Positions 8,359 to 48,818 are shown, numbered from the stretch's first letter. The stretch: 64,000 nucleotides of DNA from an uncultured virus (IMG/VR IMGVR_UViG_3300031787_008607) (IMGVR_UViG_3300031787_008607:1-64000), one strand, 5' to 3'. Numbers and translations are program-made. The notes: generated by a model not told the origin, from the letters alone.

Positions 8359-8377
8359 TTCACAACCAACTAATGTT

Positions 8378-8407
8378 AAAACCCCTCAAATTTGAGGGGT
8401 TTTTTTA
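8378..8407 (+). terminator. Intrinsic terminator after dnaK
   Basis: ACCCCTCAAA/TTTGAGGGGT plus T-run. Confidence 0.8.
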
Positions 8408-8430
8408 TTTAATAAAAGTATTTATGAAAT

Positions 8431-10646: not shown

Positions 10647-11965
10647 AAAAGATAATATTATTACTTTCAGTTATCCTTGTAACATCAACTTCATATTCAC
10701 AAGAAGTTAATTATGAAGATACTATCGTTGATGGTATAAACACCACATGGACGGATAATGATTTGGATACTTTACAAGTTGCTGCTATGGGTATACAAGA
10801 AATTGTTACCACTTGGATTGCTCCTGAACCTGAACCAGAACCTGTTGATGTTACTAAACTTTCAGAGGGAGATTTGGCAAGTATTGCTGAGGACGTTAAG
10901 TTCTTGGACGACTTACCAAAGTCATATAATGATTTACCTAAGGAAGATTTAAAAAATGTATTGATTCAAATTGATAACAAGATTGCTAAACTTACTGCTG
11001 AACGAGATTCATTATTGGCTCAAGCGGTTAGAAATGAAGAACTTATTAAATCCAAAGAAAATACAATCGGTTCATTAGGTAAAGAAAAGAATATCATTGG
11101 TTTAACCTTGGAGACAGATAACTTAACAGATGAGAACGGAAACTTAATACATGAGAAAACTGATTTAGAAAAAGAAAGAGAAACCTTAAAGAAATATCTT
11201 TATAGTGCTTTAGTTGTGTTAGCGATAATCGGTTTAATATTGGCAATCGTCCTACAAAGAAAGAGAATACAAGTACAAGATGTTGAGATTGAACAACAAC
11301 TTACTGACATTGCTAAGAAAAATAGTTACTTGGAACATGCTGCAAGAATTATCCGTCACGATATGCACTCTGGTATTAACACATATATGCCGAGAGGTAT
11401 TACTTCATTAGAGAAGAGATTAACGACTGAAGACATCCAAAGATTAAAGATTGAAGGAGCATTGAAGATGGTTAAGGAAGGATTAAGTCATACACAAAGA
11501 GTTTATAAAAGTGTTTATGAGTTTACCAATCTTGTTAAACAAAATGTTGTATTAAATAAATCTGTGGTTAACGCTAAAGATTTGATTTGGAAATACATAT
11601 CACCAAATTCGTATAGTGTTCAAGTTGAAATTTCTGAGTTGGGTGATATGGAAGTTAACGAGACATTATTCTGTAATGCTATTGAAAACTTAATCAAGAA
11701 TGGTTTATCGTATAACGATAGTGAGGTTAAAAAGGTTAAAATATATAACGAAGAAGAATATTTAATTGTTGAGGACAACGGAAGAGGGTTCACACAAAAA
11801 CAATTTGAAAAACATTTAACAAAGTATTCAAAGAAAGCAGATGTTACTGGTGACGAGAAGGGTCTTGGATTGAATATCTGTGTTGCGATATTGGAAGAGC
11901 ATGGTTTTAAATTGAGTTGTGAAAAAATTGAAGGTGGAACCAAAATGAAAATAAAAATAAAATAA
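10643..11965 (+). CDS. Sensor histidine kinase with extracytoplasmic coiled coil
   Basis: Signal peptide, TM, IRHDMHS, NLIKNGL, DNGRG, KGLGL. Confidence 0.9.
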   Translation: MKKIILLLSVILVTSTSYSQEVNYEDTIVDGINTTWTDNDLDTLQVAAMGIQEIVTTWIAPEPEPEPVDVTKLSEGDLASIAEDVKFLDDLPKSYNDLPKEDLKNVLIQIDNKIAKLTAERDSLLAQAVRNEELIKSKENTIGSLGKEKNIIGLTLETDNLTDENGNLIHEKTDLEKERETLKKYLYSALVVLAIIGLILAIVLQRKRIQVQDVEIEQQLTDIAKKNSYLEHAARIIRHDMHSGINTYMPRGITSLEKRLTTEDIQRLKIEGALKMVKEGLSHTQRVYKSVYEFTNLVKQNVVLNKSVVNAKDLIWKYISPNSYSVQVEISELGDMEVNETLFCNAIENLIKNGLSYNDSEVKKVKIYNEEEYLIVEDNGRGFTQKQFEKHLTKYSKKADVTGDEKGLGLNICVAILEEHGFKLSCEKIEGGTKMKIKIK

Positions 11966-11981
11966 AGAAAAAGAAAAAAAC

Positions 11982-12413
11982 ATGATTGATTCAATTTTGT
12001 TAGTGGATGATGAGGATTTGTTCCACTTGGTATTTGAGGACAGTTGTTCCTTGTTAGACATCACATTGTCATTAAAGAGTTTGAATAGTTCTGATGAGGC
12101 GGCTAAATTATTTGCTGATTGGCAAAAAAATTCAGATGGACGACCTGAGTGTGTGTTCGTTGATTTGAACATTATCGGTTCATCCTTTGATGGTATTGAA
12201 CTTATCCGTAAGGTTAATTTTGAATATGGTAACCATGTGGTTATTGGTATTATATCTTCAAGTAACGAACCTGAAGAACAGGCTAAAGCAATTCAGGCTG
12301 GTGCTCAGTTTTGGATTATCAAGTCAGATGATATTGAACCAAGATTGGAAGATTTCAAAAAAGATTATGAGGGTTACAAAAACAGAACCGCGCCATTCAA
12401 AGTTTATAAATGA
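11982..12413 (+). CDS. Single-domain response regulator (CheY-like receiver)
   Basis: ILLVDD, VFVDLN, ISSS, IIK motifs. Confidence 0.92.
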   Translation: MIDSILLVDDEDLFHLVFEDSCSLLDITLSLKSLNSSDEAAKLFADWQKNSDGRPECVFVDLNIIGSSFDGIELIRKVNFEYGNHVVIGIISSSNEPEEQAKAIQAGAQFWIIKSDDIEPRLEDFKKDYEGYKNRTAPFKVYK

Positions 12414-13096
12414 TAGTATTAGATAAAAATACAAAGAAGTTATTAATAGAAACTTTTAAGACTAAGAACATTGGTCTTGAAGGTAATATTACTAAATTAA
12501 TAGATGCTCAAGACGACGAGGAGTTCAAGGAGTATCTTAAAACTTGTATTGAAAAAGATACTGCATTAAGAAGAAAACGTTTGGAGATGACTAAAAAAGT
12601 TCAGGTTCAAAATAATGATTTGACAACCTTGAATGAAGAAAATCAAAGAATACTTACTGAACTACAAGAAACATTAGATAGTGTTGAGGAACAGAAAAGT
12701 CAGATTGAATGTCAAAACGCCGAATTAATTACTTGGAAAATGGAGAATGAAAAGATTGGGGCAGAGCTTGTTGAGGCGATGAAACAATCTGAAATGGCAA
12801 GAGTCATCGCTGAGAATGCTAAGAACGAAGCGGAGAACAATTTAGATTTAATACAGAAGAAAACTCAATTTGAGTTGATTAATAATATTGTTAGGGTTGC
12901 TCTTTATGTAATCATAGGTGTTGGAGGAATCACGACTGGAATATATGTTTATTCTATGACAATAGGAATGGATACGGACATCATTGGCTCCACTTGGAGT
13001 AATATGTTTGGTATTCTGTTAACAAATAGTTTCAGTATCGTGGGAACAATACTTGGGGTGAAGTATGGTGCTAATCCTGGCAAGGAAGATAAATAA
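12410..13096 (+). CDS. Coiled-coil protein with two C-terminal TM helices
   Basis: ORF coupled to the response regulator gene. Confidence 0.75.
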   Translation: MIVLDKNTKKLLIETFKTKNIGLEGNITKLIDAQDDEEFKEYLKTCIEKDTALRRKRLEMTKKVQVQNNDLTTLNEENQRILTELQETLDSVEEQKSQIECQNAELITWKMENEKIGAELVEAMKQSEMARVIAENAKNEAENNLDLIQKKTQFELINNIVRVALYVIIGVGGITTGIYVYSMTIGMDTDIIGSTWSNMFGILLTNSFSIVGTILGVKYGANPGKEDK

Positions 13097-13113
13097 ACAA
13101 AAAAAATAAAAAA

Positions 13114-13656
13114 ATGAGTAGATTAAAAAAGTTAATTTTCGGTGAAACTCCGTATGTAAAGGTTGAAGATAAAAATAGATTTTATTACATGCTTCAACAG
13201 ATGCAGGCAAACAGATGGAAGATAACAATGATTGTATTGTTCTTATTTTTTTTCATCATTGCTGGTATAAACTCCGCAGTATTTTTCGGTGTATCAATTG
13301 AAGAGAACTGGAAAGAAATGTTATTGATATTGTTCGGAGCATTCGTTGGTAATCTTAACAAGGTTGTTGATTACTGGTTTAACTCTGAGGATAGAGATAA
13401 GATGTTAATCCAAAAGGTTGATGAAGAGGACGGAACAGTATTATCTAATGTTTCAGAATACCCAACAACCCCAAGACCACCACAACCACCAGTTGTTGTA
13501 GTTACACAAGTTAAAGAAGAAACTCCTGTGGTTGTTGAAGAACCAGTTGTTTATGAAGAACCGACAACTTATACTGAACCTGAGGTGTATGAGGAACCAA
13601 TCGTTGAGGAATACCCAACAGAGGAACCTACACAAGAAGGTGAAGAAAACATATAA
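13114..13656 (+). CDS. 2-TM membrane protein with Pro/Glu-rich tail (holin-like motif)
   Basis: LLILFGAFVGNLNKVVDYWF; EEP repeats. Confidence 0.6.
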   Translation: MSRLKKLIFGETPYVKVEDKNRFYYMLQQMQANRWKITMIVLFLFFFIIAGINSAVFFGVSIEENWKEMLLILFGAFVGNLNKVVDYWFNSEDRDKMLIQKVDEEDGTVLSNVSEYPTTPRPPQPPVVVVTQVKEETPVVVEEPVVYEEPTTYTEPEVYEEPIVEEYPTEEPTQEGEENI

Positions 13657-19260: not shown

Positions 19261-19941
19261 ATGTTGAAAGTAACCTTAATATCTGACACGCACACTAAAG
19301 AACGAAATGTTCTTGTGAATGGTGGTGACTTGATTTTACATAGCGGTGACGTTATGAACTCAGGTTATAATTGGGAAGATTTGTATGACTTCTTAAATTG
19401 GTTCAGTGAACTACCATATAAGATGAAGGTATTCATTCCTGGTAATCACGACAGATACATTGAGGACAAACCATTTGACGCTTGGAAGATGATTCGTGAG
19501 TTTAACGACAAAGGTGTTGTTTGTTTGATTGATGACTTCGTTGAGTTTGAGGGATTGAAAATCTATGGTAGTCCTTGGCAACCTGAGTTCTACAATTGGG
19601 CATTCAACCTACCACGTAATGGTAAGGAGTTGGAAGAGAAGTGGGCAAACATTCCTGACGATACCGACATCTTGTTAACACACGGACCAGCTTGGGGTAT
19701 CTTGGATACCGTAGTCAATCGTCGTGACGTTAATCTTGGATGTGAGATGTTGGCAAAACGATTGGAGACATTACACCCACTAATCCATAGTTGCGGTCAC
19801 ATCCACACAGGTTATGGGTATGTTGAAAAGAACGGAACACACTTCTTCAACGCATCTATCTTGGATGAGCGTTACAGTCACAACCAAAAACCTTTTGATA
19901 TCACCATTGATGTTGAAAATAAAAAAATAGAAATACTATGA
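19261..19941 (+). CDS. Metallophosphoesterase
   Basis: SDTH, HSGD, GNHD, THGP, GHIH. Confidence 0.9.
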   Translation: MLKVTLISDTHTKERNVLVNGGDLILHSGDVMNSGYNWEDLYDFLNWFSELPYKMKVFIPGNHDRYIEDKPFDAWKMIREFNDKGVVCLIDDFVEFEGLKIYGSPWQPEFYNWAFNLPRNGKELEEKWANIPDDTDILLTHGPAWGILDTVVNRRDVNLGCEMLAKRLETLHPLIHSCGHIHTGYGYVEKNGTHFFNASILDERYSHNQKPFDITIDVENKKIEIL

Positions 19942-20669
19942 TTGAAAAATTAGTTAAAAACAGAACTCCATATCTCGGCAAGATGATATTGAAGTTTGAG
20001 AAACACCCACACTATTCAAGTAGTATGGACGGTAGATTAAATAAAGTTCACCTTAATTTAGGGTTCACCAAATTGGTAACTAGGTTAATACCAAACCAGG
20101 TTATGGAAGGTTACTCAAATATTGACCCCAAGAAGATTGAACTGATTAACAAATACACTGGTGGTGTTATTGGAACTCACAAGTGGGGTGATAATGATAA
20201 TGATGAATTTGTTTTGGAGGATTCCTTCTTAACCAAAGATGGTAAATATATTGGTAACATTGATACCGCTTGGTGGTATTTTCAAAACGCGATGACTGTT
20301 TGTGAAGAATACCCACAAGGAGTTGCTATTGTTTGGAATACTACAAAATGTAATACGTTGGCTAGTGCACAAACGATTAAAGGTTATCGTGGATACTCTC
20401 ATCGTGGAGGTGCAACTTTTAAGATTGGTGACCGATTGTTTGATGAAGAATATAATCCAGTTGTTGAAGATTATGATGAGAACGAATTTAAAAAGTGGTG
20501 GAAAGAATACACCAAGTCATATAAAAACGGTGACGACTTTGACAAAAAATGGATTTATGGTGATGGAATCAAATCGGTAATACCATTCAACAAGAGAGGT
20601 AAAAACATAATTGAAAATTTGGAAGACGCAAGAACTGCGGCAATTAACATGTCAAAATATCTATCATAA
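19938..20669 (+). CDS. Hypothetical protein
   Basis: ORF coupled to upstream gene. Confidence 0.7.
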   Translation: MIEKLVKNRTPYLGKMILKFEKHPHYSSSMDGRLNKVHLNLGFTKLVTRLIPNQVMEGYSNIDPKKIELINKYTGGVIGTHKWGDNDNDEFVLEDSFLTKDGKYIGNIDTAWWYFQNAMTVCEEYPQGVAIVWNTTKCNTLASAQTIKGYRGYSHRGGATFKIGDRLFDEEYNPVVEDYDENEFKKWWKEYTKSYKNGDDFDKKWIYGDGIKSVIPFNKRGKNIIENLEDARTAAINMSKYLS

Positions 20670-37667: not shown

Positions 37668-38429
37668 ATGAACTTACACGAACACATAAAAAAAGTATTA
37701 AGAGAAGAGGTTAACAAAAAGTATTTGAAACCGAGTGAAAAATCCGAGAAATTTATTTTGGATAGATTGAATAGTATGGCTTCAGGTGCTGAAATATACC
37801 ACGTTGAAAGTTATAAAACAAGACATGATTTTGAGTTTTGTAAAAATGGGAAACAAATAATGAATCTCGCATTGTTCTTTGAAGAAACTGACGATAATAC
37901 CCCAACGTCTGAAAGACAATTTGAATCTTCAACATTATCAGTACAAGAAGATTTTGTTGGTGGACTATTAGGGGCGTTTCCTGTTAGAAGAAATTATCTT
38001 TATTATATAATTGAAGAATGGTTTGAAGATACTTTTTTAAGTAAAATCTCAGATATGATAGGTAGAAATGATATATCTGTTGAAGAATTATCATTTAATG
38101 ATAGGTCATATACGTGTGTCCCACCAATTAAAGAAGTACCTGAAGGAGTTTCTCAAGACGAGATGATTAAGGTTATTATGAACAATACACTATGGCGTAA
38201 AAAAGATTTATTGGCGTTAGAAGAAAGAGAACCTGGGTCTATAGAATTTATGTATTTACAAAAACTTCGTAATAATGAGGTTAATAGATTAGATGGTGGT
38301 AATCCAATGGGGGAAAGCGAAATAAAAGAAGGTGAATTAACTGAGAAATGTTGGAAAGGATATACTCAAAAAGGAATGAAAACTATGTTTGGTAAGAGAT
38401 ACCCCAACTGTGTTAAAAAGACAAAGTAA
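37668..38429 (+). CDS. MNLQE-leader protein with C-terminal CWKGY...PNCV micro-domain
   Basis: Leader plus Cys motif. Confidence 0.75.
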   Translation: MNLHEHIKKVLREEVNKKYLKPSEKSEKFILDRLNSMASGAEIYHVESYKTRHDFEFCKNGKQIMNLALFFEETDDNTPTSERQFESSTLSVQEDFVGGLLGAFPVRRNYLYYIIEEWFEDTFLSKISDMIGRNDISVEELSFNDRSYTCVPPIKEVPEGVSQDEMIKVIMNNTLWRKKDLLALEEREPGSIEFMYLQKLRNNEVNRLDGGNPMGESEIKEGELTEKCWKGYTQKGMKTMFGKRYPNCVKKTK

Positions 38430-38842
38430 TGAACCTACAAGAACACATAAGAAGAGTATTAAGGGAAGAACTATATTCTCCATCAGGAGATGAATATACA
38501 CCTGGTAAATTTGTTGTTCATAAATCAAATCCTATATGGAGAGAGAACATAGAACTTAAAGGTTTACAAACGTATGTGGGTGATTGTTACCAACAACATG
38601 TTGGAGGTGATGTGGAATGTAAGCCATCAATATTTGCAACAGATTCATTAGATAAGAAACAAATATTTGATTCAACCTATGATGATGACATATGGATTAT
38701 TGATACAGAATGTGCGGGTGTTACTTGGTATAAAGATAGACATTTTGAGGGTGGTGACTACAAACACCATATAGTTACATTTGATAACATATCACCTGAT
38801 TGTTTAAGATTAATACATAAAGGAACAGGGAAAAGTAATTAA
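38429..38842 (+). CDS. MNLQE-leader protein, possible ADP-ribosyltransferase-like fold
   Basis: VHKS...I..KGL...IFAT...WIID pattern. Confidence 0.5.
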   Translation: MNLQEHIRRVLREELYSPSGDEYTPGKFVVHKSNPIWRENIELKGLQTYVGDCYQQHVGGDVECKPSIFATDSLDKKQIFDSTYDDDIWIIDTECAGVTWYKDRHFEGGDYKHHIVTFDNISPDCLRLIHKGTGKSN

Positions 38843-38843
38843 C

Positions 38844-39464
38844 ATGAACCTACAAGAACACATAAGAAGAGTATTAAGGGAAGATAAAAAGAGTAAATTC
38901 ATTATGGATATTGTTGATAAACATGGTGTTTATAAGACGGCAGAAATGATGGGTGTGAGTCTGACCTATTTATACAAAATGTCTGATTTAAAAATTGATG
39001 AATTTGTTGCTAAAGAACTATTAGCTGAAAATATTGTAAATGGTAATTTACCTGCAAAATATAAAGGATTTGAAATTGAAATAAGTAGTGATGATGTGTT
39101 TTATTGGACAAGACAGTTTAAATCGGGACACTATCCACCTAATGTATTAGAAAAAATATGGGTAATGGCAACACCTTTTTTCGCAACTGCTGATTATACA
39201 CCCGTTGAACTTGATTGGTATGGATTAGAAGATGACTCAAATAAACCTAATGTAGGAATATACGATACAAGTGGTGATGGTGATTATTTTGTGGAACTTA
39301 CACATAATACACATAATGGTAACTATTTTTTTAATAGTGTTGATAATTTATTTGATTGGTATAATACGTTTTATTTACCAGGAGTGTATGAAATAATCTT
39401 GGATAGATTCATACCTCAAGTCCAAGAAGACACAGACGAGAGACTTAGAGATAAAAATACTTAA
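38844..39464 (+). CDS. MNLQE-leader hypothetical protein
   Basis: ORF. Confidence 0.75.
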   Translation: MNLQEHIRRVLREDKKSKFIMDIVDKHGVYKTAEMMGVSLTYLYKMSDLKIDEFVAKELLAENIVNGNLPAKYKGFEIEISSDDVFYWTRQFKSGHYPPNVLEKIWVMATPFFATADYTPVELDWYGLEDDSNKPNVGIYDTSGDGDYFVELTHNTHNGNYFFNSVDNLFDWYNTFYLPGVYEIILDRFIPQVQEDTDERLRDKNT

Positions 39465-39517
39465 GATACGGACTTAGGACCGTTGTAGTTTAGGCTACAT
39501 TAACCCCATTGAATTCG

Positions 39518-40252
39518 CTACTCAGTGGGGTTTTCATTTAATATCTCTTCCACCCCTTCAAACACGGGTAGTTCGGTTCCACCAGTTCTGAGTACCTTAT
39601 GATTTAAGACCTCTTCCACCATGCGGAGTGGTTGGGCGATGCAAGAAGATGTTGTGGATACCTTATGATTTAAGACCTCTTCCACCTTGGAATATTGAGT
39701 GTTACATACTCTCAGAGTTGTGGATACCTTACTATTTAATACCTCACCCAACTTAGAGCTTGTCGTGTGGCGAAACGCACAGGTTGTGGATACCTTACTA
39801 TTTAAGACCTCTTCCACCCTTGAAAGAGGATGTAAGAACGTATGCCGCGTTGTGGATATCCTATGATTCAAGACCTCTTCCACCAACAAAATGGAATACC
39901 AACCGTATTCCTTTGTTGTGGATACCCTATGATTTAAGACCTCTTCCACCCTTGAAGTTCTTTTGTTACCTGGGTTCACTGTTGTGGATACCCTATGATT
40001 TAAGACCTCTTCCACCCAAGAAGCGAGTATTGGTTCAAAATCTTCACGTTCCAAAGAAAAAATGGTGAAGAAACTTGGAAAAAAACTATACCTCCAATAC
40101 AATGTACCAGTGTTTTCAAATTCAAAATACCAATACTTTTCTTCTCTATTAATTAACCATATTGAATCTTTATATGGGATTATCTCCGCATTACCTAATT
40201 CTTTGTATAGTTGTTTGAATACAACCTGTTTTAATCTATCAGTTACTTTCAT
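39518..40252 (-). CDS. Array-bearing protein 1: conserved ~80-aa domain plus (VEEVLNHKVSTT + 10 variable aa) units
   Basis: ORF; paralog of three other genes. Confidence 0.8.
   Translation of the reverse strand: MKVTDRLKQVVFKQLYKELGNAEIIPYKDSIWLINREEKYWYFEFENTGTLYWRYSFFPSFFTIFSLEREDFEPILASWVEEVLNHRVSTTVNPGNKRTSRVEEVLNHRVSTTKEYGWYSILLVEEVLNHRISTTRHTFLHPLSRVEEVLNSKVSTTCAFRHTTSSKLGEVLNSKVSTTLRVCNTQYSKVEEVLNHKVSTTSSCIAQPLRMVEEVLNHKVLRTGGTELPVFEGVEEILNENPTE
39519..40016. repeat. CRISPR-like array 1: 36-bp repeat x7 plus partial, 7 unique 30-bp spacers, inside ORF
   Basis: GTTGTGGATACCTTATGATTTAAGACCTCTTCCACC-type units at 39585, 39651, 39717, 39783, 39849, 39915, 39981 (period 66). Confidence 0.9.
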
Positions 40253-40253
40253 A

Positions 40254-40979
40254 TTATTTTTGATTTAATACCTCATCTACCGATTCCGCTCTTCTTGAGA
40301 TGTATTCTTCCGTTTTGGATACCTTACGATTCAATATATCTTCCACCAAAAAGTTTCCTTCACCTACGTCACGGACTGTTTTGGATACCTTAATATCCAA
40401 TACCTCTTCCATCTCAAGATTACCTCTTGGGTGGAGATACTCCGTTGTAGATACCTTACGATTCAATACCTGTTCCACCAAATAGTTGTTAGATAAGGTC
40501 ATGTTTTTTGTTGTGGATACCTTACTATTCAATACCTCTTCCATCATATCATTCGAAGTGAAACTGAATTGCTGAGTTGTAGATACCTTACTATTCAATA
40601 CCTCTTCCACCCCTCGCTTAAAATTTCTGAAACGGCTTGCAGTTGTGGATACCTTACTATTCAATACCTCTTCCACCCCGCCATCCATGACATATTGCGT
40701 GCTGTCAGTTGTGGATACCTTACTATTCAATACCTCTTCCACCCAAGATGAAATAATTGGTTCAAAATCTTTGGACTCCAAAGAGAAAAAAGAAAAGAAA
40801 GATTTGAAATAATCATATCTCCAATATAAACATCCACTTTCAGTTAGTTGGAAATACCAGTATTTTTCTTCTCTATCAATAAACCAATAACTGTATTGGG
40901 TAGGGATAATTTCCACATTACCTAATTCTTTATATAGTTGTTTGAATATGAGTTGTTTTAATCTATCCGTTACTTTCAT
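40254..40979 (-). CDS. Array-bearing protein 2
   Basis: ORF; same architecture. Confidence 0.8.
   Translation of the reverse strand: MKVTDRLKQLIFKQLYKELGNVEIIPTQYSYWFIDREEKYWYFQLTESGCLYWRYDYFKSFFSFFSLESKDFEPIISSWVEEVLNSKVSTTDSTQYVMDGGVEEVLNSKVSTTASRFRNFKRGVEEVLNSKVSTTQQFSFTSNDMMEEVLNSKVSTTKNMTLSNNYLVEQVLNRKVSTTEYLHPRGNLEMEEVLDIKVSKTVRDVGEGNFLVEDILNRKVSKTEEYISRRAESVDEVLNQK
40258..40743. repeat. CRISPR-like array 2: 7 repeats plus partial, 7 spacers
   Basis: Repeat starts 40312, 40378, 40444, 40510, 40576, 40642, 40708. Confidence 0.9.
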
Positions 40980-41733
40980 TTTCTTTTTTGTTGTTTAATG
41001 CCTTTTTCACCCAAACACTATTTAATACTTCTTCCACTGACCTTTCGGAAAATAAGGAATTATTTTTAGTTGTAGATACCCTACTATCTAATACTTTTTT
41101 TACCTTTCTTTTTTGGGTGGCGTCTACTTCAAAAGTTTCGGATACCTTATGATTTAATATTTCTTCCACCCCGCAGCGTTGAAGACCTTCAAAACCGACT
41201 GTTGTGGACACCTTACTATCTAATACCTCTTCCACCTGCTGGTAGTATGCTCCACTCCATGATTCAGTTGTGGACACCTTACTATCTAATACCTCTTCCA
41301 CCGAAGTTTGTTGTCTTCTAGCGGAAAGAGGGGTTGTGGATACCTTATGATTTAATACCTCTTCCACCTCGTGATGTGCTCGGCCAATGGGAAATTCGGT
41401 TGTGGATACCTTATGATTTAAGACCTCTTCCACCTGAAGTAAGCGGTGGGCCAATGTATTACCTGTTGTGGATACCTTATGATTTAATACCTCTTCCACC
41501 CAAGAAGATATTATTGGTTCAAACTCACTCTGTTCCAAAGAGAAAATACTGAAAAACGATGGGAAGAATGAGTATCTCCAAAATAAACATCCCTCTTTAG
41601 ACAACTGAAAATACCAATAACAATTTTCCCTATCAATGAACCATACAGAGTCTTTATATGGGATTATCTCCACATTACCTAACTCTTTGTATAGGTGTTT
41701 GAATATGAGTTGTTTTAGCTTATCTGTAACCAT
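40963..41733 (-). CDS. Array-bearing protein 3
   Basis: ORF; minus-strand TATCTTTG promoter 4-5 nt before ATG. Confidence 0.8.
   Translation of the reverse strand: MVTDKLKQLIFKHLYKELGNVEIIPYKDSVWFIDRENCYWYFQLSKEGCLFWRYSFFPSFFSIFSLEQSEFEPIISSWVEEVLNHKVSTTGNTLAHRLLQVEEVLNHKVSTTEFPIGRAHHEVEEVLNHKVSTTPLSARRQQTSVEEVLDSKVSTTESWSGAYYQQVEEVLDSKVSTTVGFEGLQRCGVEEILNHKVSETFEVDATQKRKVKKVLDSRVSTTKNNSLFSERSVEEVLNSVWVKKALNNKKENESNG
41015..41500. repeat. CRISPR-like array 3: 7 repeats plus partial, 7 spacers
   Basis: Repeat starts 41069, 41135, 41201, 41267, 41333, 41399, 41465. Confidence 0.9.
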
Positions 41734-41769
41734 AAGCACAAAGATACTAAAAAACTTTGAAAATACAAA

Positions 41770-42108
41770 TTAATAATCAGTTGGTATTTTTAACGACCAT
41801 TGACTGTATAATTTATGATTGGTCATATTACCCCCCAAGTTCAGTTTTTTCTTGACCCATTGTCCGATAACTGATTCAGCTTTATACGACTCTATAGAAA
41901 AGAATGAAGATACTTTTTGAATTAATTCAAAATAGATAAAACACAACTCATCATTACGATGTCTACCACCATATTTAATCTGAGCAAACCAATCGTCTGA
42001 ATTTACAAAGTATGTACTGGCACCTTTTTTAAGGATATCAAAATTCTGGCTATCAAGAAACTTGAGTATTGCTTTATCTAATTGTGATTCTGTGATTAAA
42101 TATTTCAT
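41770..42108 (-). CDS. MKYLITES-leader family protein
   Basis: Leader plus shared ~90-aa domain. Confidence 0.75.
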   Translation of the reverse strand: MKYLITESQLDKAILKFLDSQNFDILKKGASTYFVNSDDWFAQIKYGGRHRNDELCFIYFELIQKVSSFFSIESYKAESVIGQWVKKKLNLGGNMTNHKLYSQWSLKIPTDY

Positions 42109-42476
42109 GATAATGTTATACTTCTAACTGATTTAACTTCGTAGTCAGGAAAGAACTCATTAAATACATCTGACATAATGAATTTGCCGTGAACTAACCA
42201 AATAGGATGAGGAAAGGCTGTACCATATACATCGTCAAAGTTCCTATTATAGTATAAATCACCACTTGGTTTATTATAAACCATTACGGCGTTTTGGTCA
42301 CTATCAAATAGGTTAAGTCTTATATCATTTTCAGAATACGAGTCAACCAAATTTTCAAAATAACGAATCATTTTAGGTTTTAGTCTTTCGTATTGTTCCG
42401 TATATTCAAAATCTCTCCAAGTTCTTTCAAGTTCGGATATTAATTTATGTTGTGACTCGGTAATAATATACTTCAT
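42105..42476 (-). CDS. MKYLITES-leader family protein
   Basis: Leader. Confidence 0.75.
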   Translation of the reverse strand: MKYIITESQHKLISELERTWRDFEYTEQYERLKPKMIRYFENLVDSYSENDIRLNLFDSDQNAVMVYNKPSGDLYYNRNFDDVYGTAFPHPIWLVHGKFIMSDVFNEFFPDYEVKSVRSITLS

Positions 42477-42483
42477 GTAATAA

Positions 42484-42503
42484 TAAATATAATTATATTT
42501 ATA
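42484..42503. promoter_or_regulatory. Back-to-back TATTTAT motifs (palindrome TAAATATAATTATATTTA) between divergent genes
   Basis: Between starts 42476(-) and 42509(+). Confidence 0.6.
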
Positions 42504-42508
42504 ATATT

Positions 42509-42832
42509 ATGAACCTACAAGAGAATATAAAAAAAGTATTAAGGGAAGAAACAGATTTTTCACCAAAGTTCAAAAGAAGATTGAATAGATTTAAATCGTT
42601 TGTATGGGATAACAATGTAACTAATTATCCCTGTGATTTTGAAAACTTTGAAGCGTTCATGCGTGGTATACAACATGAAATTATGGACATGATTACAGAT
42701 GGTTCTGATACCGATGGCCCGTTGTCTGATTGGTTAAAATATAAAGATGCTGTTACGTATGTAGAAAACTACATGAGGGATGACTTAGAAAAGTTTTATA
42801 ATAAGCAATGTGTTGATGTCTTATACGTATAA
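42509..42832 (+). CDS. MNLQE-leader hypothetical protein
   Basis: Leader. Confidence 0.75.
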   Translation: MNLQENIKKVLREETDFSPKFKRRLNRFKSFVWDNNVTNYPCDFENFEAFMRGIQHEIMDMITDGSDTDGPLSDWLKYKDAVTYVENYMRDDLEKFYNKQCVDVLYV

Positions 42833-43177
42833 ATTAAGAAATTGTTCCACTGATATTCCAAGACCTGAGATACCAAAAAGTTCCATAAATTCAGACTCAT
42901 CATATCTATCACATCCGTTATTGATAATCCAAGGAATATCTGTAACATAATTCATCTGATAAAGTATATTATAACTATTATCTAATTTTATAAGATACAA
43001 CGGACCATAGTAATCCATACTAAGTCTTCTTCGTAAACCATCATCGGTAATACAGTTATCAAAAGACATCATTACATCAATTAAATCTGGGTCAATCTCC
43101 ACACGACCCGTAAGGTCAATATTAAACTTGTTTTTAATGAATGTTTTTAATTTAGATTCAGTAATTAAGTATTTCAT
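42821..43177 (-). CDS. MKYLITES-leader protein
   Basis: Start moved to leader ATG. Confidence 0.75.
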   Translation of the reverse strand: MKYLITESKLKTFIKNKFNIDLTGRVEIDPDLIDVMMSFDNCITDDGLRRRLSMDYYGPLYLIKLDNSYNILYQMNYVTDIPWIINNGCDRYDESEFMELFGISGLGISVEQFLNLYV

Positions 43178-43193
43178 TATATATAAATATAAG

Positions 43194-43604
43194 TTAACAA
43201 TTTCCTGTATTATAAACCTCAATATTATGACCTCTAATTAGACCGCCACCCAACTGATATAAAGCCTTAGAAATAACATCTCTATACATACTTCTTGTAC
43301 CTTCCTCATAGATATACCTTCCCACATTTGCAGGGGCTGGCTTAGGTATGTAGACAACCAAATTCATAGAGTCACGAGTGGGGATGATATTATAACTACA
43401 ATACATCAAGACGGTTGAGATATCATTTTCAATTATAGTTTTTGTTAGAAAGATAATATCTTCTCTTGTTCCTTTAAGACCAATCTCATCAATAATATCT
43501 TCAGGTTCCTTATCAGTCATTTTACACAGAGTACGCATACCAAATTTCTCTAATAAGGGTTTAAGAGTTTTGTTATATTGATTCTCAGTGATTAAGTATT
43601 TCAT
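43194..43604 (-). CDS. MKYLITE-leader protein
   Basis: Leader. Confidence 0.75.
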   Translation of the reverse strand: MKYLITENQYNKTLKPLLEKFGMRTLCKMTDKEPEDIIDEIGLKGTREDIIFLTKTIIENDISTVLMYCSYNIIPTRDSMNLVVYIPKPAPANVGRYIYEEGTRSMYRDVISKALYQLGGGLIRGHNIEVYNTGNC

Positions 43605-43616
43605 TATATGTAAATA

Positions 43617-43949
43617 TTAGTTATAGTGAACCCTCAAAACTTCGGACTTGCTAAAGACAACCCATTGCGCGTAACTGACTTCCATTTGTAAGGTATCCGC
43701 AACCCAATTACCGATAATGTTTTTAGAGGTGACTTCATTTAAAGAAAATAATACAGAGATGTCCTCAATTAAATTCAACGTTATCTGACCAACACCATTT
43801 TTTTTATTATATCTAATTTGGGCATGTTCATCCTCTTCTGAATTAACAAAGAATATATTACTACTTGTTTCAATCTGAATAAAGTTCTGACTATCCAAAT
43901 ATCTAAAGATTACTCTGTCTAATTGTGATTCGGTGATAAGGTATTTCAT
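43617..43949 (-). CDS. MKYLITES-leader family protein
   Basis: Leader plus shared domain. Confidence 0.75.
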   Translation of the reverse strand: MKYLITESQLDRVIFRYLDSQNFIQIETSSNIFFVNSEEDEHAQIRYNKKNGVGQITLNLIEDISVLFSLNEVTSKNIIGNWVADTLQMEVSYAQWVVFSKSEVLRVHYN

Positions 43950-43952
43950 ATA

Positions 43953-44273
43953 TTAATAATCAAAAAACATAACATCAACATCAAATGCTTTACTAAACCA
44001 ATCAGAAATGAATTTACCTGATTGCTCTTTATCAAGTGGATACATGGATGAAAACTTATCTAAAAAAGATTCATCAATAAATAATCTACCATCGCTGTGG
44101 TCAAACTCCATTAAAATAAAAAAATCAGGGCCTCTTTCAGGGCTATATATATTAATGAAATCACTATCAGATGTTCTATCATAATCTAATAATTTATTTA
44201 ACTCAGATATCATTAAATTATTTATTACCGATTTGACTTTATCTAATTGTGATTCGGTGATGAGGTATTTCAT
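43953..44273 (-). CDS. MKYLITES-leader family protein
   Basis: Start moved to leader ATG. Confidence 0.75.
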   Translation of the reverse strand: MKYLITESQLDKVKSVINNLMISELNKLLDYDRTSDSDFINIYSPERGPDFFILMEFDHSDGRLFIDESFLDKFSSMYPLDKEQSGKFISDWFSKAFDVDVMFFDY

Positions 44274-44306
44274 ATAAAATATAAATATAATCATATTTAT
44301 AATAAT

Positions 44307-44678
44307 ATGAACTTAGAAGGGACAATTAAAAGGATACTCAAAGAAGAATTCAAAAAGGATAAGATAATTGACGGATATATTACGTCATTAATTAAACCTG
44401 TTGGTCGATTTAAAGAGGGGTATAATCATGACGCTGGTAGATTTGACATCACTGACAATAATGATAATTTACGTGCTACCATATTCTATAACAAAAGAAG
44501 AGACGCAATGGAAGTTATGATTGATGAGGATATATGGAATCTTTTGTCTTCAGTGTTCTCAAGGGAAACTTGGGATGAGATAAATGATAGTTTGGTTAAA
44601 TGGTTCCAAGAAAATTACGATGAGTTAGAAGATATCTACGAAGTTAATACGTTTGATAATGCTGAATATGCTTACTAA
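44307..44678 (+). CDS. MNL-leader hypothetical protein
   Basis: MNLEGTIKRILKEE. Confidence 0.75.
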   Translation: MNLEGTIKRILKEEFKKDKIIDGYITSLIKPVGRFKEGYNHDAGRFDITDNNDNLRATIFYNKRRDAMEVMIDEDIWNLLSSVFSRETWDEINDSLVKWFQENYDELEDIYEVNTFDNAEYAY

Positions 44679-44679
44679 T

Positions 44680-45009
44680 ATGAACTTAAAAGAATCTATA
44701 AAAAGAATACTGAGGGAAGAACTATCGGCGAGAATTAAAAGAAGACTTTCTAATGATGAAATGGAAAATGAGTTTCTTGAATCTTTTGAAGATGCTTATC
44801 GTATTACAAAGAACAGAAAGGTTTTAAGTTCACATTTTTTAGATGAGTTAGTCTACACAACAATAACCGTTATGATGGATGGGGTACATTGGAGATTTGT
44901 TAGTACATTACCTGAAGATGAATTTTGGTATGATGATATACACCAAGGGTTAGAAAATCATTATAGAAAAAGAATTACACGGATGTATAATGAAAGAAAA
45001 GGTTTCTAA
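44680..45009 (+). CDS. MNL-leader hypothetical protein
   Basis: MNLKESIKRILREE. Confidence 0.75.
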   Translation: MNLKESIKRILREELSARIKRRLSNDEMENEFLESFEDAYRITKNRKVLSSHFLDELVYTTITVMMDGVHWRFVSTLPEDEFWYDDIHQGLENHYRKRITRMYNERKGF

Positions 45010-45012
45010 AGA

Positions 45013-45291
45013 TTAATTAGAGTTTAAGAATTTAAGTAATGCTCTAATATATTCGGAACGTTTATCATAGAATTCAGTATCATTATCATATTGAAAAAAC
45101 TCTTCACCTCTATGTCTATCAATGAACTTTTCAATTAATTCATAAGCGTAGTCATCTCTGTCTGCAGAATCTTCAAAATCTTCTTCATCCATAATGTAGT
45201 TATAATCATCCCTAAGTGCTTCCAATTCATCCATTGTAAACCTCCTAAGTAAAAATGCTTCTAACTGTGATTCTGTAATTAAGTATTTCAT
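45013..45291 (-). CDS. MKYLITES-leader protein
   Basis: Leader. Confidence 0.75.
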   Translation of the reverse strand: MKYLITESQLEAFLLRRFTMDELEALRDDYNYIMDEEDFEDSADRDDYAYELIEKFIDRHRGEEFFQYDNDTEFYDKRSEYIRALLKFLNSN

Positions 45292-45294
45292 ATA

Positions 45295-45591
45295 TTAAAA
45301 CATCCAGCCTGTACTTTTAACTTCCATATCTAAAGTGTTCTCAACCCATTTACCAATAAGTTCCTCTGAGTAGTTACTATCTAAACTAAATAGACTTGTA
45401 ATCTCACTTATTAAATCATAATAAATGATACACTTATGATTATATATATCATAAACAACATAGGCATAATCATCATGACCTTTTCTAACAAAATAAATGT
45501 GAGTAGTTTTATCAAGTATCTTTAGGTCCAAACCATTCAGATACTTCATAACAACTTTTTCTAATTTTGATTCTGTAATAATATATTTCAT
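45295..45591 (-). CDS. MKYIITES-leader family protein
   Basis: Leader plus shared domain ending WVENTLDMEVKST. Confidence 0.75.
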   Translation of the reverse strand: MKYIITESKLEKVVMKYLNGLDLKILDKTTHIYFVRKGHDDYAYVVYDIYNHKCIIYYDLISEITSLFSLDSNYSEELIGKWVENTLDMEVKSTGWMF

Positions 45592-45905
45592 AATATTAAT
45601 CTTACATCTATTGTTATGCCGTGAACCTCATATGGTGCAAAACCTGTATATGGGTTAAGTCCGCTTGTTTTAATACTCAAAAAATCTTTTATCGACCTTC
45701 TAATCTCACGTTCTAAATTTAATTCCTTTAGTTTATTAAGATTATAATGGTAAGGGTTGGTTATATATGAATCATCAATATGAGAAACGTAAACATCAAT
45801 TAACATCTCATCATCAAACTCACTCTTTCTAACTTTAATCTCGTCAGGAGAGTATAATGTATTAATTAGTTTTACAATTGCTTTAACCTTATGCTCAATC
45901 TTCAT
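45588..45905 (-). CDS. Hypothetical protein
   Basis: ORF; TATTTAT upstream. Confidence 0.65.
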   Translation of the reverse strand: MKIEHKVKAIVKLINTLYSPDEIKVRKSEFDDEMLIDVYVSHIDDSYITNPYHYNLNKLKELNLEREIRRSIKDFLSIKTSGLNPYTGFAPYEVHGITIDVRLIL

Positions 45906-45973
45906 ATTATAATAAATACAAAGATAAGTATAAACTCGTATAGGATTATAATGGGGAGTGGGGGAAATAATTA

Positions 45974-46270
45974 CTATTTAATTATAATTCCTTCAACTCT
46001 TCTATCCAAAGTATTCTCAACCCATCTAGCAATAACATATTTAGCATTATCAAATTCTATAGAGAAGAAATCTTTAATCTCATCAATTAACTCAAAACTT
46101 ATTCCACAGTCACCACTTCTAAAGTATTCGATTAATGTGTCGATATATTCATCATCTTCCGAATTAACAAAGTATATTGCGTTTCCTCTTTTAATCTGAA
46201 TAAAGTTCTTAATATCCAAATATCTAAAGATTACTTTATCTAATTGTGATTCTGTTATGAGGTATTTCAT
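45974..46270 (-). CDS. MKYLITES-leader family protein
   Basis: Leader plus shared domain. Confidence 0.75.
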   Translation of the reverse strand: MKYLITESQLDKVIFRYLDIKNFIQIKRGNAIYFVNSEDDEYIDTLIEYFRSGDCGISFELIDEIKDFFSIEFDNAKYVIARWVENTLDRRVEGIIIK

Positions 46271-46300
46271 TGTATATAAATATCATAAAGATAATAACTA

Positions 46301-47095
46301 TTATTGATTTAATACCTGTTCCATCACATAATTCATAACAGACATTTCTACATCCGTTGTACATTCCTTATGATTTAATACTTCTTCCACCCCTCTTGTG
46401 AAGGGTCCAGAATATGCTTCCAATGTTGATACCTTATGATTTAATACTTCTTCCACCAATGAATGTTCGGGGTATTTGAGAATGGTGGTTGTAGACACTT
46501 TAACATTATGACTTAATACATCTTCCACCCGTGTTCGGATATGAGCATTGTGAGTATTAGTTGTGGATACCTTACTATTTAATACCTCTTCCACCTTCCA
46601 AGGAACACGAACTTTAACATCGCACGTTGTGGATACCTTATGATTTAATACATCTTCCACCATCATGCTTTCAACACCGCTACCTGTCACGGTTGTGGAT
46701 ACCTTATGATTTAAGACCTCTTCCACCTCTCTCCCATTATTATACCTGCTATCATCCGTTGTGGATACCTTATGATTTAAGACCTCTTCCACCTTGTCCG
46801 TTGTAATTGGAAGTGGAATGAAGGTTGTGGATACCTTATGATTTAAGACCTCTTCCACCCAAGAAGATAGAACAGGACAAAAATCATCCGAGCTCATTGA
46901 GAATATTTGAAAAAACGAATTGAAAAAATCGTATCTCCACCATAAAGTACCTGACTCATCAAGTTCAAAGTACCAATATTTATTATCCCTATTAATGAAC
47001 CATGTAGACCCATTATAAGGAATAATCTCACAATCACCCAACTCTTTATATAGGTGTTTAAAAATAAGTTGTTTTAATCTATCTGTAATAACCAT
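46301..47095 (-). CDS. Array-bearing protein 4
   Basis: ORF; minus-strand TATATTTG promoter just upstream. Confidence 0.8.
   Translation of the reverse strand: MVITDRLKQLIFKHLYKELGDCEIIPYNGSTWFINRDNKYWYFELDESGTLWWRYDFFNSFFQIFSMSSDDFCPVLSSWVEEVLNHKVSTTFIPLPITTDKVEEVLNHKVSTTDDSRYNNGREVEEVLNHKVSTTVTGSGVESMMVEDVLNHKVSTTCDVKVRVPWKVEEVLNSKVSTTNTHNAHIRTRVEDVLSHNVKVSTTTILKYPEHSLVEEVLNHKVSTLEAYSGPFTRGVEEVLNHKECTTDVEMSVMNYVMEQVLNQ
46304..46859. repeat. CRISPR-like array 4: 8 repeats plus partial, 8 spacers
   Basis: Repeat starts 46356, 46422, 46488 (6-bp insertion), 46560, 46626, 46692, 46758, 46824. Confidence 0.9.
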
Positions 47096-47275: not shown

Positions 47276-47989
47276 ATGGAACAAAAAGTAATAAATGAGT
47301 TTGTGATGGATTCAATCGATGAATTAAAATCGGTTGACAGAAAGTACAAAAAATTTAGTGAACTTATGTCTAAACATAATCCGTATGAACTCTCGGTATT
47401 TTGTGATACCCCTAAAAAGATTGTTGATTTTGTAATGATTAGTCATAAACAAACATCAAGACAAACCATTATGGGTAATTTATTAGAATCAATTGCGATT
47501 AAAATTAGTTCAGTAATACTAGGAGGGTACAAATCTAAGGAAGAGTGTACCGATTTAGAGTGGGTTAATGATGATTTATTTCACTATAGAGGATGGAAGT
47601 CAAGTCCTAAATGGTGTAACGCTGACCAAAAAAAGAGAGTTAATATTAAGGTGGGGGAACTAAAAGAAAATAATGATTTCGGTAGTTTTAAAGTTCTGAC
47701 TTCTTACGGTAAGACCACCAAAAAAAATACGGAAAAAAACTTTACACAGTTATCGGGGCAAGACTCGTGGTATGAAATCAGTAACGACCCTGAGATGTAT
47801 AATAAAGTTATGATTGCCATTGTTAAACACTCCAAATATCTTAATCAGGTGATAGAGGATATTTACTCATCGAATGTTAAAGAATCGGTAGAATGGGTGG
47901 ATAGAAACTTTACAAATAAGGATAAAACAATTAATTTTATTAAAATAAATGAGTATGTCAGCGGAAGGAATAAAGTTACAGTCAGCTAA
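47276..47989 (+). CDS. Putative type II restriction endonuclease
   Basis: MGNLLE...DLE...KSSPKWCNADQ PD-(D/E)xK-like motif; adjacent to MTase. Confidence 0.6.
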   Translation: MEQKVINEFVMDSIDELKSVDRKYKKFSELMSKHNPYELSVFCDTPKKIVDFVMISHKQTSRQTIMGNLLESIAIKISSVILGGYKSKEECTDLEWVNDDLFHYRGWKSSPKWCNADQKKRVNIKVGELKENNDFGSFKVLTSYGKTTKKNTEKNFTQLSGQDSWYEISNDPEMYNKVMIAIVKHSKYLNQVIEDIYSSNVKESVEWVDRNFTNKDKTINFIKINEYVSGRNKVTVS

Positions 47990-48818
47990 TGGTAATACTA
48001 TTGAGTTATTTCATGGGGATTCGTTAGATATATTAAAATTAATTGATGATAATTCAGTTGATTTAATTGTTACGTCTCCACCATATTCTGACCAAAGAAA
48101 ATCAACATACGGTGGAATACATCCTGACAAATATGTGGAATGGTTTTTACCAATAAGTAAAGAATTACTTAGGGTATTAAAACCAACAGGTTCCTTTGTT
48201 CTTAATATTAAGGAAAAGGTATATAACGGTGAGAGACACACATATGTTTTGGAACTTATTATTGCAATGAGGAACCAAGGTTGGTTGTGGACTGAAGAAT
48301 ATATGTGGCATAAGAAGAATTCATTTCCTGGCAAATGGCCAAACAGATTACGAGATGCGTGGGAGAGATTATTACATTTCAATAAGGAGAAAAAGTTTGA
48401 TATGTATCAAGATAATGTTAAAGTTCCCATAGGTGATTGGTCTACAAAAAGATTGGCCAACCTAAGTGATACAGATAAGAAAAGAGATGTCTCCAAAGTA
48501 GGAAGTGGTTTCGGTAAGAAAATAGAAAATTGGGTAGGTAAAGAAATGGTATTACCTGATAACGTATTATATATGGCAACAGAGTCGTCTAATAAAGGAC
48601 ACTCAGCGGCATACCCTGAATCATTACCTGAATGGTTTATTAAACTCTTTACTAAAGAAGGTGATGTTGTGTTAGACCCATTTTTAGGTAGTGGCACAAC
48701 ATGTAAAGTTGCAACTGACTTAAATAGAAATTCCATAGGTATCGAATTAAATGATGAGTATTTTAATTTAACATTAAATAAGTTAAATGAATATGTGAGT
48801 AATGAAACAATAAATTAA
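47949..48818 (+). CDS. N4-cytosine/N6-adenine DNA methyltransferase (beta class)
   Basis: TSPPY before VLDPFLGSGTT. Confidence 0.93.
   Translation: MSMSAEGIKLQSANGNTIELFHGDSLDILKLIDDNSVDLIVTSPPYSDQRKSTYGGIHPDKYVEWFLPISKELLRVLKPTGSFVLNIKEKVYNGERHTYVLELIIAMRNQGWLWTEEYMWHKKNSFPGKWPNRLRDAWERLLHFNKEKKFDMYQDNVKVPIGDWSTKRLANLSDTDKKRDVSKVGSGFGKKIENWVGKEMVLPDNVLYMATESSNKGHSAAYPESLPEWFIKLFTKEGDVVLDPFLGSGTTCKVATDLNRNSIGIELNDEYFNLTLNKLNEYVSNETIN

Follow-up and report, generated by a model that had tools for sequence, protein, structure and literature searches.

The type VI-B CRISPR arrays found in Bacteroidota, and the CRISPR-like elements that viruses carry without any cas gene, are the described systems that come closest to the locus considered here, which consists of four paralogous genes, each ending in an array of 36-nt repeats and 30-nt spacers, on a 64,000-nt stretch of an uncultured IMG/VR virus (IMGVR_UViG_3300031787_008607:1-64000, the whole of which is referred to below as the window). 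According to the accessible part of the work on Flavobacterium columnare (PMC8092290), the VI-B arrays of this bacterium are devoid of cas1 and cas2 and are filled in trans by the Cas1-Cas2 of a type II-C system, from both phage and host DNA, with TTTANNNNN/NNNNNTAAA as the acquisition motif. In the same text, VI-B arrays are described as transcribed from the leader into the array, and their repeats as having mainly a leader-distal GTTGT motif in common with those of type II-C. On the viral side, the cas-less mini-arrays and the solitary repeat units (Racr) are, in the accessible sections of two reports (PMC10651486, PMC11656645), non-coding elements with one or two spacers or none, among which no type VI example is mentioned. 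As far as these sections tell, Racr-type repeats are identical or nearly identical to those of the host, since identical repeats characterize the mini-arrays (PMC11656645) and at least 90% identity the search of the survey (PMC10651486), and the spacers of mini-arrays often match related viruses (PMC10651486, PMC11656645). The survey, the main one devoted to viral repeat mimics, states in its accessible text that open reading frames (ORFs) were masked before the search (PMC10651486). The outline of a survey of hypervariable repeat proteins lists five systems, and the phage array family is not among them (PMC10392669). Full-text literature searches returned no relevant description of translated or in-frame CRISPR-like arrays in phages.

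With the VI-B arrays of Bacteroidota, the arrays of the window share the 36-nt repeats, the 30-nt spacers and the absence of adjacent cas1 and cas2, a repeat in the sense orientation with 20-24 of 36 identical bases, a 3' ...GGTA...CAAC end and the leader-distal GTTGT motif, as well as a variable leader end and a decayed far end. They differ from them, however, in that the array lies within a translated gene and its first repeat codes for part of a folded domain, in that all the spacers are stop-free and under selection at the peptide level, and in that Cas13b is missing from the vicinity, no protospacers were found and the repeat is identical to no bacterial repeat searched. Like Racr, which is thought, in the accessible text, to act through the Cas proteins of the host, they consist of CRISPR repeats of host type that a virus carries unaccompanied by cas genes. 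Unlike Racr, they comprise seven or eight translated units in each of four phage genes, these units lie inside ORFs, and the best repeat identity amounts to 67% among the natural repeats sampled. With hypervariable cassette proteins and the precursors of ribosomally synthesized and post-translationally modified peptides (RiPPs) they share the alternation of constant and hypervariable segments and a diversity confined to short cassettes. However, the cassettes of such proteins, as they are outlined in the literature, diverge by mutation or duplication along codon boundaries, whereas the phage arrays combine an out-of-register 36-nt element with unrelated inserts. The arrays are placed here with the virus-borne cas-less CRISPR arrays and repeat mimics, and would be categorically new if the integrase step discussed below holds. 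Neither as an ordinary CRISPR array nor as an ordinary repeat protein can the data be accounted for. The explanation preferred here, with a confidence that stops a little short of even, is that of translated, dual-coded CRISPR-type arrays residing in phage genes and extended in trans by the Cas1-Cas2 of the host.

Geometry and reading frame of the arrays

In each of the four genes (Table 1), a stretch coding for the first 79-80 residues precedes units that combine 36 conserved with 30 variable bases; the full spacers number 7, 7, 7 and 8, i.e., 29 altogether, and every array closes with a decayed partial repeat. Tandem Repeats Finder assigns a period of 66 to these genes. The encoded protein is laid out as a folded head continued by a tail where unrelated 10-mers are set between copies of a constant 12-mer (VEEVLNHKVSTT). 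The third gene overlaps the start of the second by 17 nt, a 6-bp insertion (VEDVLSHNVKVSTT) interrupts the repeat in the sixth unit of the fourth gene, and about 30 copies of repeat look-alikes occur per phage genome. An earlier reading of the window, made from its letters only and called here the sequence-only reading, had described four paralogous minus-strand genes made of a domain and 7-8 units of 66 bp, one of them with a 6-bp insertion, and proved correct in every particular; its description of the 29 spacers as 30 bp long, mutually unrelated, free of in-frame stops and in several cases close to 50% guanine plus cytosine (GC) was equally accurate.

The repeat unit does not coincide with the codon frame. 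Conservation sets in with the last base of the codon before Val, which is otherwise random and has a G at this place in 151 of 156 distinct units (1.75 bits), and ceases after the second base of the codon for Thr-12, the third base of which is free (0.10 bits) at variance with the other third positions of the repeat (mean of 1.38 bits). Because a fixed G precedes the Val codon and the last base of the Thr-12 codon is free, the unit has to be considered as 36 + 30 nt, offset from the codon frame, and the CRISPR-like geometry pointed out in the sequence-only reading holds at single-base resolution. The choice of codons inside the block departs from that of the genome: V1 is encoded by GTG in 142 of 151 cases (10% genome-wide), K8 by AAG in 150 of 152 (21%), E3 by GAG in 113 of 123 (19%) and S10 by TCC in 95 of 144 (5%), and GTT, the commonest Val codon of the genome (57%), does not occur at any of the three Val positions of the repeat. 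The 36-nt element is conserved as nucleotides, beyond the peptide that it encodes.

In-frame stops occur in none of the 29 spacers of the window and in none of the 136 unique spacers of the family, whereas 20, 7, 9, 11 and 9 of the 29 are interrupted in the other five frames. Since natural type VI-B arrays exhibit a stop in the phage-equivalent frame in 21 of 55 30-nt spacers, the open frame that runs through the phage arrays is far beyond chance. The interval between units is exactly 22 aa in 445 of 452 instances from 120 family proteins. At the DNA level, 116 of 122 distinct adjacent repeat pairs are spaced by 66 bp and the rest by 132 or 138 bp, all of them in frame and stop-free, and no array continues out of frame. 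Natural VI-B arrays contain spacers of 29, 30 and 31 nt in 3, 55 and 1 cases, respectively. Long open frames alone are no proof of coding, as illustrated by a genuine Cas13b array (L206, G042:C1:104001-124000, 10931-11795) in which chance ORFs of 169 and 241 aa cross up to 11 repeat-spacer units, the natural repeat of that genome being read in the phage-equivalent frame as a stop-free LELLSFWRVIT.

The inserts look near random, with 0.03-0.17 bits per position and no positional residue preference, except for position 10, whose codon ends in the fixed G of the repeat. Their relatedness is bimodal, the pairwise nucleotide identities of the 136 unique spacers being either at most 18/30 or at least 24/30. 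The 29 spacers of the window have a GC of 0.43, compared with 0.31 for the genome, and 8 of them reach 0.50 or more. The family-wide values of 0.40-0.42 exceed the 0.325 expected from stop-filtered phage DNA, for which the highest of 5,000 simulated means is 0.364. Phage-like DNA filtered for stops does not account for the inserts; a source of about 40% GC would fit, and the GC of natural VI-B spacers follows that of their own genome. Two further ideas on spacer composition were rejected, namely an amelioration that would let the GC fall with array position (Spearman -0.07, p 0.52), and an under-dispersion of GC, present among 79 spacers and gone among 136. Once established, the inserts are under purifying selection at the peptide level: variants in shared inserts consist of 13 synonymous and 12 nonsynonymous changes, the neutral expectation being 5.6 synonymous ones (pN/pS 0.26), and 14, 7 and 4 of them fall on the third, second and first codon position, respectively.

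Unit turnover and likeness to type VI-B repeats

Orthologous genes of related phages differ by entire 66-bp units, which is the strain-level turnover that the sequence-only reading had suggested looking for. Units that co-occur keep the same order in 202 of 209 unit pairs (148 arrays, 134 distinct), and those that are unshared lie in a proximal position in 1782 cases, in a distal one in 722 and in an internal one in 520 (591 array pairs with at least two units in common, the pairs not being independent). Most of the common units have a proximal neighbour far more variable than the distal one, and the mismatches of the repeat increase toward the distal end. The polarity of array growth toward the domain-proximal end is a bias, not a rule. 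An ordered list, changes by whole units and a proximal bias are the behaviour of a CRISPR array. The addition of spacers one unit at a time, and not by tandem duplication, is supported because a duplicated unit occurs within only one of 147 arrays, in agreement with the separate addition proposed from the sequence alone.

Logan contigs from three lake or freshwater runs of different studies contain, between repeats that flank known units, other stretches of 34-38 nt (window 40743-46460), which are population variants whose spacers do not occur in the window; these contigs fragment at the repeats, the joints of gain and loss are unreadable in them and the uncovered parts are uninformative. One metatranscriptome run yielded contigs over parts of the second and third array genes, for which a carry-over of DNA is possible.

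The repeat was compared with four natural VI-B repeats. Two of them belong to Flavobacteriaceae arrays found by a pattern restricted to the repeat ends (2 of 401 genomes), and one of these arrays directly adjoins Cas13b (837 bits) and Csx27. The other two come from genomes of Bacteroidota (2 of 401) that were retrieved solely with the protein model of Cas13b. The identities of the phage repeat with them, given above, approach those of the natural repeats among themselves (22-28/36) and exceed those of the reverse-complement controls (13-18). Distributed by codon position, the matches amount to 9-11 of 12 at third positions and to 10-15 of 24 at the others. Depending on the natural repeat, 0-518 of the 294,912 synonymous encodings of the repeat peptide would match it better (top 0.01-0.2%), and the exact P values of the recoding null under phage codon usage are 1.1e-5, 4.2e-7, 1.7e-3 and 1.5e-3 for the four repeats, or 1.7e-4 and 2e-5 when the ends forced by the pattern are set aside. 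Permutation of the columns gives P values of <5e-6, <5e-6 and 1.3e-4, and a comparison of the phage and natural consensus finds 17 of 20 jointly defined columns in agreement, including 7 of 7 third positions. In addition, the repeat peptide differs among six phage subfamilies (VESVLNGGVTTT, VEETLNCKVLST and others), and every one of these lies within the top 0.011-2.3% of its own synonymous encodings with respect to the natural consensus. Judged from these alignments, the synonymous sites of the repeat appear to be tuned to the natural VI-B direct repeats of Bacteroidota.

A loose pattern (GTTGG..GGTATCNACAAC) run over genome contigs was discarded, the matches listed containing chance single matches. 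A Flavobacteriaceae locus (L207, G332:C8:25001-45000, 10604-13402) harbours four mini-arrays of 2-3 slightly divergent VI-B-like repeats amid ORFs; the ORF at L207:11144-12316 is TnpB-like (50 bits, under the family cut-off), and none of 7 ORFs compared with the Cas13b model matches it.

Explanations for the arrays

The preferred explanation can be extended into a mechanism, in which a CRISPR integrase of the host would write captured 30-bp DNA, each piece accompanied by a new 36-bp repeat, into phage genes that are translated and the mRNA of which would serve in addition as a decoy or guide for Cas13b. In this full form it is tentative, and somewhat more doubtful than probable. It goes beyond the observed geometry, repeat tuning, dynamics and selection regimes by a putative integrase step, a presumed source of the inserts, a possible interaction with Cas13b and a conjectural function of the protein. 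The host Cas1-Cas2 acting in trans would be the most economical writer of new 36 + 30-bp units in the gene tail, because the F. columnare VI-B array that lacks cas1 and cas2 is filled by a II-C integrase. Each capture of DNA would create a new peptide of 10 residues. Selection would then purge the inserts with stops, about half of random inserts being stop-free in frame by computation, together with any inserts of 29 or 31 nt, and those that had turned useful as peptides would be conserved afterwards. The repeat look-alikes carried on mRNAs, some 30 per genome, would perhaps be bound or cut by the Cas13b of the host, as decoys or guides.

A number of results weigh against this explanation, beginning with the lack of protospacers. 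None was found for 79 unique spacers, including those of the window, in the phage's own 132.7-kb record and related loci. None was found either for the 29 window spacers in the genomes of four related phages (52-82% complete), where a 21/22-nt match of one spacer was judged to be due to chance, the remaining 8 nt being mismatched, nor in 50,697 deposited phage genomes, in 4 Cas13b-bearing genomes or, at a low sensitivity with 2 candidates scored per genome, in 401 Flavobacteriales genomes. The 21 spacers of the first three arrays have none in 5 Bacteroidota genomes, and 4 spacers compared with IMG/VR and 1 with the JGI metagenomes match only orthologous arrays. This lack of spacers derived from the phage itself or its kin is unexpected because the VI-B arrays of F. 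columnare also draw on infecting phage. Besides, no match to this phage lineage was obtained with the spacers from a natural Cas13b array of genome G042. The searches against its own genome, Bacteroidota and phages that the sequence-only reading had called for thus gave no protospacer for any spacer, and the Cas1-Cas2-like integration it had put forward keeps the rank of a proposal. The models of Cas1, Cas2 and Cas13b, the last of which detected true loci in other genomes, have no match in five phage records, i.e., that of the window and those of the four relatives (45-82% complete), and the same holds for RVT_1. The absence of cas and reverse transcriptase genes stated for the window extends in this way beyond it.

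The repeat itself provides other points on the same side. Its likeness to the natural VI-B repeats is moderate (56-67%), no bacterial repeat with both of its 12-nt ends occurs among 185,579 species genomes, and no leader motif is common to natural and phage arrays. The hairpin of the repeat RNA is weak (-6.5 kcal/mol, z -1.4, 21 of 200 shuffles folding equally well), and Rfam contains no match at the gathering score and none of relevance up to E 10. The first "repeat" is, according to the structural model described below, the terminal segment of a genuine protein domain, which speaks against a pure guide array, and the repeat varies among distant subfamilies, every variant matching the domain end of the subfamily to which it belongs. 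The inserts show a coding periodicity (GC1 0.45, GC2 0.40, GC3 0.35) that points, along with purifying selection, to a role at the protein level left unexplained by capture alone. Finally, a distal or internal position is taken by 41% of the unshared units, and the order conflicts in 7 of the 209 unit pairs; therefore, recombination also contributes to the arrays. On balance, the unit-wise addition, the turnover, the CRISPR-like geometry and the likeness to VI-B repeats stand from the sequence-only reading, in which the writing by an integrase and the processing of the RNA are putative.

The main rival, although unlikely, takes up several of these points. It supposes a fast-evolving modular phage protein, independent of Cas, in which the 36-nt repeats are recombination sites that allow co-infecting relatives to swap 66-bp cassettes out of a very large pool, gene conversion homogenizes the repeats, and the resemblance to Cas13b repeats is convergent or has a purely RNA-level purpose. 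Mosaicism and selection at the protein level are both accounted for in this way. The derivation of the repeat from the end of a real domain, the repeat variants specific to subfamilies, the failure to find either protospacers or cas genes and the peptide-level constraint on the inserts all agree with it, as do the mosaic arrays, exemplified by the unit CDVKVRVPWK with 18 different left neighbours and 16 right ones, and the size of the unit pool (309 clusters, Chao1 ~745). It does not explain, however, the origin of unrelated inserts of exactly 30 nt with bimodal identities and almost without tandem duplicates, nor the register of the 36-nt element with respect to the codons, the synonymous sites that are at or near the best possible VI-B match, and a GC of the inserts some 10 points above that of the genome.

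It is improbable that the arrays are primarily an RNA device, namely a decoy or guide array for Cas13b (an anti-CRISPR RNA or hijacked CRISPR RNAs) in which translation would serve only for the protection or expression of the transcript, the peptide tail being functionless. The mimicry of VI-B repeats in the sense orientation and the number of repeat copies per genome are consistent with such a device, and so are, weakly, the metatranscriptome contigs mentioned above. Viruses are known to inhibit Cas proteins with repeat mimics, and the accessible part of the survey that masked ORFs mentions no type VI (PMC10651486). Nevertheless, the low pN/pS and the prevalence of variants at third positions (14 vs 7 and 4) reveal selection on the peptide, none of the 136 unique spacers contains a stop, no array persists out of frame, both the likeness of the repeat and its fold are modest, and the turnover of spacers is unnecessary for a decoy.

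Still less probable is a multi-peptide precursor, RiPP-like or a polyprotein processed by a protease, in which the constant 12-mers would be recognition or cleavage sites and the variable 10-mers would be released as a peptide library. The cyanobactin precursor PatE is a multi-core RiPP precursor of this kind, and the array proteins resemble such precursors by a constant leader domain, by alternating constant and hypervariable segments, by a tail predicted to be disordered and by variable peptides under purifying selection. However, Pfam names no maturation enzyme in the record (45% of the genome), where it was applied to 70 ORFs out of 140 with a length of 120 aa or more, the inserts are devoid of positional residue preference, and neither the 36-nt nucleotide register nor the tuning to a CRISPR repeat is accounted for.

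A randomization of the 30-nt segments in place by targeted hypermutation, through a diversity-generating retroelement or a similar device, would agree with a variability restricted to sharply bounded segments of a phage protein, but it is close to excluded because neither a reverse transcriptase in the 5 records nor a template copy of any spacer in the phage's own record and related loci was found, by changes that are all-or-none instead of adenine-specific, and by units that are gained or lost whole. An ordinary tandem-repeat protein is contradicted by the unrelated variable parts, the single duplicate among 147 arrays, the block offset from the codons and the synonymous sites fixed on rare codons. 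As marks of such a protein, the sequence-only reading had named spacers alignable with each other, which they are not, or conserved as amino acids, as the shared inserts are, in either case with no protospacer matches and no strain-level unit turnover, and such turnover is observed.

Domain family, genomic setting and significance

The N-terminal domain of the fourth array protein, together with the first repeat, is predicted by AlphaFold2 (AF2), from a 79-sequence alignment, to fold into an alpha/beta domain (Table 1) with the order helix, four strands, helix, helix. In this model, helix alpha-3 (residues 69-84) ends with the VEEVLNH segment of the first repeat, and KVSTT adopts a short strand. 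No solved relative of the fold was found by Foldseek (E >=0.2), and the best hit of the VIA structure search (Z 4.7, root-mean-square deviation 3.0 A, 56 residues aligned) lies below the noise level stated for the tool. The full-length AF2 model is poor (pLDDT 38.8) and represents the tail as disordered, a low-confidence prediction. The domain, again including the first repeat, is homologous to stand-alone proteins encoded in the neighbourhood (MKYLITESQ...WVENTLDMEVKST type), with an hhalign probability of 96.5% (E 9.5e-10, 84 columns), and the C-terminal segment of these paralogues corresponds to the repeat. Single-domain matches in BFVD (TM 0.72-0.80) agree with this homology.

Neither Pfam nor PHROGs contains a family for the four array genes or for the single-domain paralogues, and tblastn of the fourth array gene against deposited phages gave no match. 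One search with 8,000 candidates scored retrieved 1,083 family proteins at E <=0.001, the lengths of which step by 22 aa, and the N-terminal domains fall into 423 clusters when grouped at 50% identity. In 18 public sequencing runs, half or more of the words sampled from the window stretch are present, and some of them in 20 runs (18 studies); the family is abundant in lake phages. In some members (P0121, P0167, P0238), the array domain is preceded by a fused MKYIITE(N/D)Q leader, which is that of the paralogue family in the neighbourhood, and one protein of 2,217 aa matches the array domain in 9 stretches.

Table 1. Array genes and other features of the window (positions counted from its first nucleotide).
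Feature	Position	Strand	Description
Array gene 1	39518..40252	-	244 aa; N-domain 40016-40252; array 39518-40016, first repeat 39981-40016; 7 spacers and decayed terminal repeat
Array gene 2	40254..40979	-	241 aa; N-domain 40743-40979; array 40254-40743; 7 spacers
Array gene 3	40963..41739	-	258 aa with a GTG start at 41739 (alternatively ATG at 41733); N-domain 41500-41739
Array of gene 3	40963-41500	-	first repeat 41465-41500; 7 spacers and decayed tail
Array gene 4	46301..47095	-	264 aa; N-domain 46859-47095; array 46301-46859, first repeat 46824-46859; 8 spacers
Predicted folded alpha/beta domain of array gene 4	46820..47095	-	residues 1-92 including first repeat; AF2 pLDDT 95.6, pTM 0.85
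Stand-alone domain paralogues (MKYLITESQ...WVENTLDMEVKST type)	41770-42108, 43617-43949, 43953-44294, 45295-45591, 45974-46270	-	hhalign, BFVD
Block of small paralogous genes	37668-46270		two families
Paralogue family MNLQEHI(R/K)RVLREE...	37668-39464, 42509-42832, 44307-45009	+
EcoO109I-like endonuclease	47276-47989		E 6.7e-23
N6/N4 DNA methylase	47949-48818		E 3.2e-47; overlaps the endonuclease gene
Tad6-like product	19938-20669		PF25188, E 6.3e-17
Hsp70/DnaK and sensory genes	6487-11965		Hsp70/DnaK full-length, 865 bits

The source record, with a completeness of 45% (CheckV estimate), belongs to a T4-like jumbo phage from a lake. Among the 70 ORFs scanned with Pfam are those for the capsid protein gp23, the portal gp20, the prohead protease and a terminase of the T4 type; Hsp70, ClpB and numerous metabolic genes occur as well. 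The array genes stand in or next to a hyperplastic block of small paralogous genes belonging to two families, each defined by a common N-terminus. The MKYLITESQ... family comprises at least 10 genes, mainly on the minus strand, and the MNLQEHI(R/K)RVLREE... family lies on the plus strand. Both N-termini contain (L/I)-x-E, which we take to be the prohead-protease and capsid-targeting motif of T4, and these small genes could code for internal proteins packaged in the capsid.

Other genes of the window deserve mention. A type II restriction-modification pair, made of an EcoO109I-like endonuclease and its partner methylase, adjoins the fourth array gene. Elsewhere, a product matching Tad6, an inhibitor of type I Thoeris, suggests an anti-defence gene, and the full-length Hsp70/DnaK is followed by a histidine kinase with a PAS domain and by a second HATPase protein, sensory genes of this sort being unusual in phages.

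If the arrays are filled by a CRISPR integrase, they would represent the first use of spacer acquisition for protein diversification and the first type VI repeat to be mimicked by a virus. CRISPR look-alikes inside genes may have been missed as an entire class, because the survey of viral mimics masked ORFs and, in its accessible part, reported no type VI (PMC10651486). The arrays raise the questions of whether Cas1-Cas2 can act on phage DNA in the course of infection, whether Cas13b could be loaded from an mRNA, and of what use cassettes of random-like peptides may be to a phage. Even on a conservative reading, they offer a striking case of dual coding, in which the synonymous sites of a protein repeat appear tuned to a CRISPR repeat.

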